DNA of 4,612 nucleotides from Fidelibacterota bacterium. Its GTDB lineage: Bacteria; Fidelibacterota; Marinisomatia; Marinisomatales; JABMOV01. Below, piece after piece: positions 1 to 3,000 of the stretch. The stretch covers positions 1-4,612 of the forward strand of contig JBHHUC010000099.1 of assembly GCA_046861395.1 (NCBI GenBank), written 5' to 3'. A program made the position numbers. Position 1 is the stretch's first letter. Every line of letters begins with the position of its first letter.

Positions 1-3000
1 TGGACTTGCTCTGTAGGACATATACCAGAACCATAATAAAAGTGGAGGCGGGGAGTCCGCCAGGGGCGGATAAAAGTCGAACTTTACACGCCTAAGGCGT
101 GTCCCGTCCAATAAACTTATTAAGATATTCACGTCCTTTGCCGCTCTTCAAGAATTTTTCACGAGTACGAGCAGACTTGTGATCGGGATATTCTTCGGTC
201 AGCAACAGGTCAAAATCACCCAACAGCCGGTGTACTGTCGATTTTTCCGAACGATGTTCTTGCAAGCGGCGATTAAGATCATTGGTAATGCCGACGTAGC
301 GTCGGGATTTGGACTTGCTCTGTAGGACATATACCAGAACCATAATAAAAGTGGAGGCGGGGAGAGTCGAACTCCCGTCCGAAATAGAGCCCCGAGAAAC
401 GTCTACATGCTTATTTCTCTGGATTCATCTTATTCCTTTTCCCACCAGGAACCCTGGAAAAAGAAACCAGTCCATAAATGTCTCACCAGTGATGTATGGA
501 CACCATCACCGGCCAGCCTATGTACATGACGCCCTGTGGTGGGACCATAGGCGCATCTCACCCAGGACGGGCTACCTTTTAAGCGGCAGCCATGTAGCCG
601 TAATCGGCACTTGTTGTTGTTCCAGGTGATTAACGAGATGCCTGGGCCTCGGCATGCAGTTTAACGATTCTTCTATCCCGTCGAAACCGGTCGCCCCCAA
701 TTGTCAAAAATCAATTCTCTTACCCGAATCCTTGGATTCAGTTCCCAAATTCCGGAAAAAAGAAAAGGCTCCGAACGCCAACCCAGAGCCTTGATCTTTT
801 GGTTACCTCGGAAAAGGTAACCATTTCACTTGCCAACCTCTGTTATCCAATTTGCATTTATGCAAATCAGATTTTTTAGAGTAGCGCAAAGCTACAAGAC
901 TCTAAAATTTGTCGCAACATTTAAGTGAAAATTTTTTCACTTTTCATCCTTGTAGATCAAAATGGAACGCTGTCCGTTGGTATCAATGTACCCGCGATAC
1001 ATTCCGGCTGTATTGAACGGCATGGCGATATTACCGTCGTGATCCAGGGCAATGACACCGCCTGTTCCGCCGAGGTTCGATAAATCACCCTCAATAGTTA
1101 TGGTGGCAGCATCTTCCAGTGACAGAGAATCAAGGCGCATCCGGGCACTGATGGAATAGGCAATGACACCGCGAATGAAATATTCGCCATGTCCCGTCGA
1201 AGAAACGCCACAGGTGGCATTATCGGCGTAGGTGCCGGCACCGATGATGGGAGAGTCACCGATCCGACCGTATTGTTTATTGGTCATGCCGCCGGTGGAT
1301 GTCCCGGCGGCGATATTGCCGATCCGGTCCAAAGCCACGCAACCCACGGTGCCAAATTTCTCCTTTTCTGTTGTTTCCTTTATTTTTTGCCAGGCCTTGA
1401 ATCGCCGCTCGGTGTAGAAGTAATCATTTTCTACGAATGAGAAACCTTGTGCCATGCCAAAATCTTCGGCTCCCTTACCGGACAACATGACATGCGGAGA
1501 TTTCTCCATGACAGCCCGCGCCAGTAATATTGGATTTTTAATACGCTTTACACCTGCCACAGCTCCCGCCGCCCGCGTTGACCCATCCATGATGGAGGCA
1601 TCCAGCTCATGGTGACCATCGCTAGTGAAAACGGCTCCCTTGCCGGCATTGAATAGAGGTGAATCCTCCAGTATGGCGATAGTGGACACCACGGCGTCCA
1701 GGGCGCTACCGCCGGATTGTAGAATATCATATCCTGCCGATAATGCTTCGTCCATTTTTGCCCGGTATTGCTTCTCTAACGCAGGTGTCAGGTTCTCTTT
1801 TCTGATGGTGCCGGCACCACCATGAATGACAATGGCCGTTTCACCAAATTCACCTTGTCCCACAAGCATCGATCCTGTGATAATTAGTGTGATGATTTTC
1901 ATGAATTGCATAACAACCCCAGCCGGTTTACCTGGAAATACATTGAAAATGTACTATTTCGGGGGCAAGTCCACAAATACCATCTCACTGGTATCTACTC
2001 TGCCTTTCAATGAAAATTCCGCTTCTCCGCTGATATAGAAACCATCGCCCGGGTGCAAAAGAAATTTCCGAAATGCAAACCGACCGCGGGAAACCACACC
2101 ATAGCCCTGGCGGTCACTCATATCCGGTAACGATGCAACATGGTTCTTCCCGGCACGCAGAACATACAGAGCGGCGTCCTGGTTCAGCCGGATCATTTTT
2201 TCTTCCCGATGGAGTTGCCGTCCCGAGACAATTAGAATTGTGGTGTTATCATCATCAGGCAGGGATATCGTTTCCCAGCGCGGTGAGATATTGTCCCGAT
2301 TTGGTTCCAGCCAGATCTGGAAAAGATGAGTGACGTCCGGCTCACGATTATATTCACTGTGCATAATGCCGCTGCCGGCTGACATGACTTGAACTTGTCC
2401 GGCAGCAATACGTCCTTTATTTCCCAGATTGTCTTCGTGTGTAATGGCACCGTCTAGGACGTAGGTAATAATTTCCATGTTGCGATGGGAATGGAGCGGG
2501 AAGCCCGATTGCGGCTGAATCCGGTCGTCATTCCAGACCCGCAACGGCGGAACCCCCATTTTATTCCGGTCAATGTAGCGGGCAAAACTGAAATGGTAGC
2601 GGGCTTTCAACCAGCCATAGTCTGTTTGCCCCAGTTGCTTTGCAGGATAAATCTGAATCATTCCTTCTTCCTTTGCCCGGGATTTAGCGGGTACCGCGAA
2701 CGCTTTCCGCAGGTGCCATCTTACCGGTTTTGCAGTTGATATTCCATTGTTTATTTATCATAACCTGTTGTGCATATTAGAAAAAGTTTTAGGATAAAAC
2801 AGTTATACGGCGGCTAATGATATAGAGTTATCTCTATTTTACTTCAAATGGCCTTATATGGAGTGGATTGAGCGTCTCAATCCATGCATCAACACGGTTG
2901 ATGCATTCCAAAAATAATATTCCTTGTTAATCTTGATAATACTTGCCCAAAATCAATTAATATGCACAACGGGTTATCATATGAATTCTTAACACAATAC

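Follow-up and report, generated by a model that had tools for sequence, protein, structure and literature searches.

The free-standing GIY-YIG homing endonuclease SegB of phages T4 and T6 recognises GGTTCRANTCC, the TpsiC motif, and cleaves on the 3' side of CCAR at the ends of tRNA genes; it is transcribed inside a tRNA precursor, homes, and brings about tandem amplification via recombination (PMC2330249; PMC13096335). The Ssn family (SsnA, cd10448) consists of single-domain GIY-YIG proteins of ~90 aa that occur with NTS/SRM tagged hairpins; its authors remark on the IS-like architecture and discuss a link with the single-stranded DNA elements REP/RAYT and IS200/IS605, and the word "tRNA" appears nowhere in the main text of their paper (PMC11893778). 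An initial annotation of the DNA studied here had regarded a nuclease-only element with specificity for tRNA-gene 3' ends as undescribed. Since SegB cuts at these ends, that specificity was already known (PMC2330249), and the hairpin-linked, single-domain Ssn proteins are likewise in print (PMC11893778). A tRNA-linked GIY-YIG gene combined with a hairpin-bearing spare tRNA copy was not described in the literature searched, most of which lay outside subscription journals.

The window, a stretch of 4,612 nt on contig C77 of a Fidelibacterota genome, contains such an arrangement at its tmRNA gene. Its features are as follows.

351..698, minus strand: intact tmRNA gene, host gene and putative target locus (ARAGORN; Rfam RF00023, 192 bits, 349-698)
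365..380, minus strand: T-arm of the intact tmRNA, GGACGGGA-GTTCGACT, recurring in interrupted form in the spare copy
351..364, minus strand: final 14 nt of the tmRNA, copy one of an uninterrupted direct repeat
344..350, minus strand: spacer of 7 nt from the tmRNA end to the ATG
92..343, minus strand: single-domain GIY-YIG nuclease gene, 83 aa (PF01541, catalytic residues, model pLDDT 91)
102..109, minus strand: beginning of the spare tmRNA copy, GGACGGGA, fused in frame with the last codons of the gene
83..101, minus strand: family A hairpin (insert 1) on the opposite strand, following T-arm position 52
75..82, minus strand: T-loop of the spare copy, GTTCGACT, between both inserts
56..74, minus strand: family A hairpin (insert 2) on the sense strand, following T-loop position 60
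42..55, minus strand: second copy of the 14-nt tmRNA tail, a branch point into a further unit or host DNA (contig C96)
1..41, minus strand: start of the next tandem unit (spacer, codons 1-11), truncated where the contig ends

The unit behind the tmRNA measures 309 nt and is made up of the GIY-YIG gene followed by the spare tmRNA tail, with positions 1-55 repeating 310-364 exactly (55 nt, period 309). Insert 1 carries a TTTA tag, a 6-bp stem and a 3-nt loop, lacks a target duplication and contains the stop codon of the gene; insert 2 directly adjoins the tail repeat. Fusion of the spare-copy start into the gene's end is also seen at L064 and L072. No Shine-Dalgarno-like run was seen by eye in the 7-nt spacer. 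A promoter of the gene's own was considered and rejected, as one promoter-like match against 1.1 expected is at chance level.

The encoded protein is a member of the GIY-YIG nuclease superfamily. It matched PF01541 with an E value of 4e-14 (53.1 bits; curated cut-off 22.6), possesses Y5, Y16, G18, R26, H30 and E62, and was predicted to adopt the GIY-YIG fold (pLDDT 91), the model retrieving 1ZG2 and Slx1 in Foldseek. The catalytic Tyr, Tyr, Arg, His and Glu are kept in 151-155 of the 156 proteins of its class. According to Pfam and the model, the 83 aa form one domain, with no separate C-terminal DNA-binding domain. NCBIfam TIGR01453 scored 19 bits, far under its cut-off of 56; a candidate profile class is CDD cd10449, which we take to be GIY-YIG_SLX1_like. 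The protein does not appear to be an Ssn: its class and the Ssn-like clade were split with 100/100 support in the tree, and it scored 118 bits with its own-class profile versus 41 with the Ssn-like profile, the Ssn reference being a Neisseria ORF taken as SsnA-like by its NTS flanks rather than by annotation. A loose SRM-like motif (CGTCAY...) was found near 2/81 close relatives versus 18/21 Ssn-like genes.

Across the genome, PF01541 gave eight matches, namely seven small proteins and one within a 624-aa frame. As first noted, five loci begin 0, 7, 32, 77 and 177 nt past the end of a same-strand tRNA or tmRNA gene (C1, C77, C66, C4 and C68, respectively), where the chance of lying within 200 nt behind such a gene is 0.16% per locus, and the small proteins are divergent (pairwise identity 27-48%). 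Tail copies were found behind C1, C66, C68 and C77 and not at C4, although their description as plain duplications of 12-25 nt does not hold: the spare copy in the window starts within the gene's last codons and bears two 19-nt tag-plus-hairpin inserts, one on either side of the T-loop. Smaller corrections concern the C66 gene, which is present but is best read from the ATG at 325 (80 aa) rather than from 388, and the partial second copy at C68, earlier given as 97% identical, which is an exact 314-nt DNA repeat. The gene at the end of contig C31, earlier left unlinked, carries a copy of the tRNA-Ala(GGC) tail, so that all six loci are tRNA-linked; in the assembly, Ala(GGC) has one intact gene (C6), which is followed by other DNA. 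TCCCGA-type hairpins numbered 15 in the genome versus 3.6 expected, 12 of them at tRNA loci, and gene-less hairpin scars occur at seven other tRNA loci and also within an IS-like ORF. No match to PF01797 (HUH Y1 transposase) was found in the genome, which is 94% complete, and none of its four integrase-family matches shares a contig with a GIY-YIG unit. One integrase-family fragment lies near a gene-less Leu scar on C83.

Linkage to tRNA genes extends to the relatives. Within the host's order, 57/67 loci of the window's class adjoin a tRNA or tmRNA gene, versus 0/21 Ssn-like paralogues from the same genomes. The closest 80 relatives span ~17 phyla and 11 RNA types; 57 of them lie less than 400 nt behind a tRNA or tmRNA gene (median spacer 30 nt), and they have hairpin families and fixed insertion points in the T-arm in common, rather than a tRNA type. 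The protein tree mostly follows phylum, each lineage favouring one tRNA; a tmRNA-specific clade, which seemed real within the order, failed across phyla. The tmRNA site is occupied at 8/35 loci, and at 2/4 in the host family. Insertion borders, previously undefined, were fixed by three sets of filled and empty congeners (G042/G060; G041/G058 and G054; G043/G073). In G042/G060, with flanks 91-93% identical, the 313-nt element holds the GIY-YIG gene alone, without an integrase gene, and is accompanied by a 23-nt repeat (T54-A76) and a hairpin B adjoining T54. Congeners of G049 lack the gene, their downstream flanks being too diverged to set borders, and the genus search found no comparable relative of G047. 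The gene is present or absent between congeners at an orthologous site beside its putative target, as in homing endonucleases. Such differences between close relatives, together with tandem stacking, suggest a minimal mobile element hitherto undescribed; the proposal of a stackable unit with GIY-YIG as its only gene agrees with the congener pairs, the stacked unrelated units and the patchy tmRNA occupancy.

The loci are varied in form. A tail copy is missing at 29/137 tRNA-linked loci, gene-less units occur, and mirror-image loci consist of a damaged 5' copy, the gene and an intact tRNA, one of them (L158) with a duplicated promoter. Truncated and frameshifted copies and several divergent paralogues per genome were also seen, and a sister subclade interrupts host genes inside inverted repeats. 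The window protein gave no tblastn match against plasmids and phages, a Gly-linked relative gave matches of 35-49% identity only, and the hairpin patterns had no match in viral sequences; a protein scan of viral contigs yielded 18 loci of at most 53% identity, with tRNA-like context in 4/8 examined.

The idea that the element brings and restores the tRNA 3' end was not borne out, as the two tails are identical in 70/86 loci that could be compared and, among loci with differing tails, it is the downstream copy that pairs worse, in 16/16. The crossover therefore cannot be located more closely than T54-A76. One locus (L197) is consistent with a replacement tail of foreign origin, in that its downstream tail equals that of its empty congeners, and it has a second reading; the foreign tail was rejected because the general comparison of tails gives it no support. 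A unit at tRNA-gene 3' ends is real but incomplete as a description: what is conserved is the T-arm, together with a family of tiny hairpin inserts. With A/B motifs selected by eye on those very loci, such hairpins were found beside 68/81 proteins at least 45% identical to that of the window, 1/75 other class members and 0/21 Ssn-like ones, and hairpin family appears to track protein clade, not host. Hairpin B lies after position 53 in 35/38 placed cases and A after 52, 59 or 60; in 30/81 inserts the flanks rejoin exactly into intact tRNA sequence. Scanning from the hairpins instead, a small GIY-YIG gene adjoined the hairpin in 45/80 loci fetched, 41 of these 45 genes sharing at least 40% identity with the window protein. 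Among the same 80, hairpin B occurred with no GIY-YIG gene nearby in 10 gene-less and 17 "other" loci, so the hairpins are not necessarily the ends of the element itself; it was also present in tRNA-Phe tails resembling island ends.

Because the window repeat is exactly 55 nt, like other contig-end overlaps of this assembly, it could be a k-mer overlap. For the repeats in general this reading is barely credible, since full repeats lie within contigs at C68, L008, L019 and L072 and an independent assembly contains a looping 323-nt unitig at ~4x flank depth; the artefact is limited to the repeat length of 55. Contig depth in one sample suggests ~4 tandem units at the window locus. Adjacent units in arrays are at least 99% identical in 12/19 pairs and 41-72% identical in 6/19, and arrays of identical units frequently close with a part-unit. 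Unrelated units (41-51% identical) are also piled at one tRNA, so slippage, raised at the outset as a possible source of the repeats, does not by itself account for the arrays.

We put at about 0.58 the probability that these units are nuclease-only selfish elements of bacterial chromosomes, which would act by T-arm nicking and spread by host repair. By sequence, the unit comprises a short spacer, a GIY-YIG gene of 80-90 aa and a spare tRNA or tmRNA 3' part with tag-plus-hairpin inserts. The promoterless gene would be transcribed as part of the tRNA precursor, and 3' processing would probably set it free as a leaderless message, which would keep nuclease output low. The enzyme would nick the DNA of tRNA genes in the T-arm or close to it, and its substrate would probably be a hairpin, single-stranded or cruciform, because the protein has no DNA-binding domain and resembles structure-reading enzymes. 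As GIY-YIG enzymes hydrolyse DNA and do not rejoin ends, host repair would copy the cassette from the filled to the empty allele (homing), with the tRNA and flanks as homology. SegB, with its homing and tandem amplification, is a precedent. Arrays may be built by re-cutting of the still-intact gene or by slipped repair between tail repeats, and the gene would rarely move to a new tRNA with fresh duplication of that gene's 3' part. The 16-40-nt hairpins may be non-autonomous passengers of this enzyme or scars that it has left, and only spare copies would tolerate them; by breaking the T-arm motif they may protect the spare copy. Against the nuclease-only reading, gain and loss are indistinguishable in the congener pairs, as 23-nt repeats permit clean deletion too; the phylum-structured tree is what long residence would give; the intact target remains beside the gene without known immunity; and there are the 29/137 loci lacking a tail copy and no close relative on plasmids or phages.

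Part of this evidence suits an Ssn/RAYT-like hairpin-maintenance enzyme, whose real substrate would be its own REP-like hairpin, spread into single-stranded stem-loops. The gene would sit behind tRNAs for transcription and for insert-tolerant spare copies, duplications and arrays would arise passively via slippage, and inheritance would be mostly vertical with loss. Clade-specific hairpins, the gene-less scars at tRNA loci and in the IS-like ORF, the tree and the Ssn precedent of hairpin-guided ssDNA cutting favour it; we nevertheless judge it unlikely, because slippage cannot place unrelated units at one tRNA, the few hairpins are concentrated at tRNA loci (12/15) versus hundreds of NTS copies, and one clade occupies 11 RNA types with sharp borders. 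A cassette carried as cargo by a tyrosine integrase acting in trans, or a tRNA-island remnant, with the GIY-YIG gene as passenger, is improbable. Integrase att sites at tRNA and tmRNA genes are repeats running from the T-loop to the 3' end, which the 14-23-nt repeats here resemble, and hairpin B occurs in island-like tRNA tails. A crude motif scan nonetheless found a tyrosine-recombinase-motif ORF within 1.5 kb in 0/80 loci, the host's integrase matches lie on other contigs, no other cargo recurs among the matches listed for the 80 hairpin-first loci, and the mirror-image loci with duplicated promoter (L158) are at odds with a single att geometry.

Equally doubtful is a gene of use to the host, which would repair DNA or fend off phages or incoming DNA. 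It would sit behind strong tRNA promoters, and tandem amplification would adjust its copy number. Patchy presence disfavours it, and the broken copies, divergent paralogues and gene-breaking sister subclade are typical of selfish DNA, whereas the strongly conserved catalytic residues, the modulation of transformation by SsnA in Neisseria and the kinship with UPF0213 and Slx1 speak for it. More tentatively than the nuclease-only element, an 80-aa hydrolytic GIY-YIG protein might be the sole enzyme of a new prokaryotic mobile DNA class. As a single-strand transposase or primer-nickase it would read the universal tRNA T-arm, insert its own 20-nt tagged hairpins with base precision and without target duplication, and copy its gene by nick-primed or rolling-circle synthesis into whole-plus-part arrays, the sister subclade doing likewise inside terminal inverted repeats located in protein-coding genes.

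These results offer a role for a large unannotated single-domain GIY-YIG group (669 clusters at 50% identity, E up to 1e-10, being matches to a four-sequence profile counted by sequence and not by tRNA linkage), a possible origin for the broken tRNA copies and short palindromic repeats of bacterial genomes, an explanation for assembly breaks at tRNA genes, and matched sets of enzymes, hairpins and targets. Should the enzymes prove to be nickases specific for the T-arm or the hairpin, they would complement Ssn as site-specific tools of very small size. If a hydrolase of 83 aa can move its own gene, the known modes of mobile-element life would be extended; if the transposase or primer-nickase reading is true, the units would rank with the smallest known autonomous elements, and an enzyme would be named for several widespread short palindromic repeat families.

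Among known systems, UPF0213 (PDB 1ZG2, 1YWL) and Slx1 are the closest solved sequences and folds to the window protein, and we know of no tRNA-linked or mobile context for either. Islands carried by integrases at tRNA and tmRNA genes keep the gene intact and have a direct repeat of its 3' part from the T-loop, as do the present units; these differ in being ~0.3 kb, in having no integrase motif nearby and a mirror geometry, and in a hairpin-bearing spare copy that extends further 5' and is fused to the end of the ORF. With REP/RAYT and IS200/IS605 they share a 4-nt tag plus palindrome and precise, strand-specific insertion without target duplication. Those elements use HUH tyrosine transposases, which rejoin DNA, whereas the enzyme linked here is a hydrolytic GIY-YIG and the genome yielded no Y1 transposase. 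Ssn is likewise a small single-domain GIY-YIG family tied to short tagged hairpins, but the hairpin families here are others, few rather than hundreds, and the tRNA linkage is absent from the Ssn-like genes of the same genomes. SegB and the present genes are both nuclease-only selfish genes among tRNA genes; SegB comes from phages, has a NUMOD3 DNA-binding part at its C-terminus (PMC2330249) and homes by region replacement, whereas the units described here are chromosomal, 300-440 nt long, and combine single-domain genes of 80-90 aa with a duplicated tRNA part and hairpin inserts.

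The genome containing the window (2.37 Mb, 94% complete) carries, directly behind its tmRNA gene, a small GIY-YIG gene whose nearest named relatives are labelled Neomarinimicrobiota/Fidelibacterota. Together with a short spacer and a spare 3' part of the tmRNA gene split by hairpin inserts, this gene forms a unit. The features of the window are as follows.

351-698, minus strand: tmRNA
92-343: 83-aa GIY-YIG gene, starting 7 nt past the tmRNA end (PF01541, E 4e-14)
109-102: start of the spare tmRNA copy, inside the ORF (codons for G-R-D)
101-83: insert 1 of the spare copy, 19 nt, containing the stop codon
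82-75: T-loop of the spare copy, between both inserts
74-56: insert 2 of the spare copy, 19 nt
directly after insert 2: tail of the spare tmRNA copy, 14 nt
937-1911, minus strand: asparaginase-2 family gene, ordinary neighbour
1954-2661, minus strand: pirin gene, ordinary neighbour
3105-3178, plus strand: tRNA-Lys(CTT), ordinary neighbour
3376-4612, plus strand: response-regulator/PAS sensor gene, truncated by the contig end, ordinary neighbour

Both inserts were of the same kind, a TTTA tag with a 6-bp stem, placed in opposite orientations and without target duplication. The spare-copy stretch folded far better than its shuffles on both strands (z -5.1; ORF control, -0.2). The initial annotation had described a tail copy of 12-25 nt; the repeat is real, but the spare copy is longer and interrupted by the hairpin inserts, which had been missed. 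Positions 1-55 exactly repeat 310-364, with a period of 309, and contig C96 shared this junction before continuing into other DNA beyond the tail copy. In four runs of one sample, possibly the source, the unit was recovered as a 323-nt unitig without differences, which re-enters the hairpin at 364 and leaves to C96 sequence at 42. Its depth was 98, 73, 89 and 107 against 25, 19, 19 and 28 for the flank (one flank contig of the fourth run stood at 9.7), depth not being equal to copy number; the simplest reading is an array of about four tandem units. Elsewhere in the window, a repeat of ~215 nt (2761-2976), probably a MITE or IS end, had 10 more long matches in the genome at 75-94% identity; copies lie before tRNA-Lys in the window and after tRNA-Ala on contig C6.

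The seven small PF01541 matches of the genome represented six loci, five of which start 0-177 nt past a same-strand tRNA or tmRNA (chance 0.16% per locus), while the sixth, on contig C31, bears a tRNA-Ala(GGC) tail copy, bearing out the reported placement of such genes behind tRNA and tmRNA genes. The C31 unit occupies 1751-2114. Just one intact Ala(GGC) gene was assembled (C6:173-246), and behind it lie a hairpin resembling a terminator and other DNA; this may reflect a second Ala(GGC) gene, a mirrored arrangement or a mixture of strains. The hairpin at the C1 locus is a 22-nt insert in the T-loop, and TCCCGA-n-TCGGGA replaces the anticodon arm at C31 and part of the T-arm at C66. This hairpin occurred 15 times in the genome against 3.6 expected, with 12 occurrences at tRNA loci. 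Gene-less hairpin-bearing versions adjoin tRNA-Lys, -Leu (two loci), -Cys, -Asp and -Phe, and tRNA-Ser(CGA) is followed by a related hairpin. Partial tRNA copies that lack the gene but bear hairpin or REP-like inserts lie at C109:1-200, C110:3530-3720/C64, C46:560-660, C106:370-460, C83:95-390, C119:14210-14252, C7:1-260 and C76:1-330, several of them in tandem at contig ends, and the intact genes for tRNA-Lys, -Cys and -Asp are preceded by copies of a 5' half. At C25:35269, a TCCCGA-type hairpin like that of the tRNA-Lys spare copy (C109:76) is inserted in a frame resembling an IS transposase, showing that hairpins move without the gene.

To survey the order, 40 genomes were searched and 87 short-frame loci were read from 150 matches listed, with UvrC-sized frames, some weaker matches and 33 further matches omitted. 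The small GIY-YIG proteins split into two classes, that of the window and an Ssn-like class, which clustered with a Neisseria protein flanked by NTS and was separated from the window's class with a tree support of 100/100. Among 67 window-class loci, 53 lay less than 400 nt behind a tRNA or tmRNA, four directly before one, five at contig edges and five elsewhere; none of the 21 Ssn-like loci in the same survey lay beside a tRNA or tmRNA. An intact gene was present within 160 nt at 8 of the 35 tmRNA sites, with fragments at two more and a gene-less tail copy at one. Since two of the eight intact genes fell outside the window's clade, the tmRNA site has been occupied more than once.

The insertion borders, lacking in the initial annotation, were fixed by comparing congeners. 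A filled tRNA-Ala site (genome G042) and its empty counterpart (G060), with flanks 91-93% identical, differed by 313 nt bordered by a 23-nt repeat from T-arm position T54 to the tRNA end, with hairpin B (described below) abutting T54. Identical borders were found at tRNA-Leu in Victivallis (G041 versus G058 and G054) and at tRNA-Met (G043 versus G073); a further Victivallis congener has a gene-less unit with a different hairpin. Such pairs fit gain or loss alike. A tail copy was present in 108 of 137 tRNA-linked loci. Among 97 copies in terminal position, the stretch of repeat without interruption extends back mostly 14, 17 or 23 nt, ending at most 2 nt from the tRNA end in 72; nine loci continue into part of another unit. 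Mirror-image loci also occur: at L158, a hairpin-bearing tRNA-Pro copy and the gene are followed by a duplicated promoter and the intact tRNA, an arrangement absent from four congeners. Of 19 pairs of neighbouring units, with one locus counted twice, 12 had an identity of 99% or more and six one of 41-72%. Paired tails were identical in 70 of 86 cases, and the downstream copy was the worse in all 16 others; the tails thus bear no general sign of foreign origin in their sequence. Three loci (L043, L065 and L185) have unrelated genes stacked behind one tRNA-Ser, arrays that slippage cannot make, so that slippage alone, which had been allowed as a source of the repeats, does not explain the arrays.

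The best 80 of at least 524 loci confirmed among GTDB genomes, three of them already in the order survey, encode proteins 48-72% identical to the window's from about 17 phyla. A tRNA or tmRNA, of eleven RNA types, lay less than 400 nt upstream in 57 and downstream in three; 11 were at contig edges and nine had none called, several of which display tRNA tails by eye. Their tree is weakly resolved but forms blocks by lineage: Cloacimonadota use Met, Planctomycetota mostly Glu and the host's group tmRNA. Verrucomicrobiota are scattered, and the whole pattern argues for long residence with retargeting now and then. The clade has two families of hairpin in common, called A (TTTA-YCCGCC-n-GGCGGR) and, secondly, B (CTTG-TGCGCC-n-GGCGCA). 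Such hairpins stand next to 68 of the 81 proteins with 45% or higher identity to that of the window, next to 1 of the 75 remaining members of the class and next to none of the 21 Ssn-like proteins. Because these motifs were picked by eye on the loci counted, the link was tested in reverse: metagenomes were scanned for hairpin B plus a T-loop, and 80 of 121 matching stretches were retrieved. A small GIY-YIG gene lay beside the hairpin in 45, and in 41 of these its identity to that of the window was 40% or more; the rest comprised 10 gene-less stretches near a tRNA, 8 edges and 17 others. Of 38 hairpin B inserts that could be placed, 35 follow T-arm position 53. Hairpin A follows position 52 (19 cases) or 59 (5 cases) when it lies on the opposite strand, and position 60 (4 cases) when it lies on the sense strand. 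Flanks rejoin exactly to intact tRNA sequence for 30 of 81 inserts. Hairpin B also occurs at L292, L311 and L322 in tRNA-Phe tails resembling the distal ends of integrase islands; by eye, small ORFs like those of toxin-antitoxin systems lie close to them. A gene-less unit at a tRNA-Leu site of a Victivallis congener (L219, G052:C65) has a T-loop insert starting GTCAT, like the Ssn-type SRM hairpin. At L056 (G040:C73), a rare unit with a plain 32-nt tail copy without hairpin, the tRNA-Gly gene and the copy share an altered T-loop (GGTCCGA), possibly a resistant target.

The window protein is a single GIY-YIG domain (predicted structure, pLDDT 91) closest to UPF0213 and Slx1. Catalytic residues were retained in 151-155 of 156 class members, and the best 150 profile matches among 50%-identity representatives measured 48-262 aa, most below 130. 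A sister subclade of the same class (support 96/93), comprising L048 (G005:C65), L090 (G005:C49), L020 (G006:C110) and L009 (G020:C118), sits within short terminal inverted repeats away from tRNA genes. By reading translations, L048, a 324-nt unit with TATA on each side, interrupts an integron-integrase-like gene, L090 an epimerase-like ORF and L020 another ORF. This subclade looks IS-like, with the GIY-YIG gene as sole gene, and supports a mobile nature of the class.

From the anatomy, borders, distribution and protein-hairpin link observed, we favour, at a probability of roughly 0.58, a nuclease-only selfish element. The gene would be carried on the tRNA transcript and its enzyme would nick the DNA of tRNA genes in the T-arm; repair by the host would then copy the cassette into empty alleles and multiply it between the tail repeats, while hairpins may be passengers or scars lasting only in spare copies. 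What counts against this reading is that the tails bear no general foreign signature and that the filled/empty pairs do not tell gain from loss; nor was a vehicle found on searching plasmids and phages for the window protein and viral sequences for the hairpin patterns. It is doubtful that the gene is instead an Ssn/RAYT-like hairpin keeper in passive arrays, against which stand the stacked unrelated genes. Cargo of an integrase appears unlikely, and so does a gene useful to the host. An artefact is suggested by the 55-nt repeat length, which equals the assembly overlap size, yet the repeat is genuine: C96 shares the junction and the unitig loops at a depth above the flank, leaving an artefact very improbable.

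The nuclease-only selfish element has a partial precedent. Phage SegB recognises GGTTCRANTCC, cuts tRNA genes 3' of CCAR, homes, and amplifies tRNA loci via recombination (PMC2330249; PMC13096335). Targeting of tRNA-gene 3' ends by a lone GIY-YIG gene is therefore already known from phages. For single-domain units in chromosomes that carry duplicated tRNA parts split by hairpins, the literature searched, mostly freely accessible papers, yielded no description. The unit is real and widespread, and there is a fair chance that its mode of movement is new. Ssn is a known single-domain, hairpin-guided GIY-YIG family (PMC11893778), to which the window protein does not belong.
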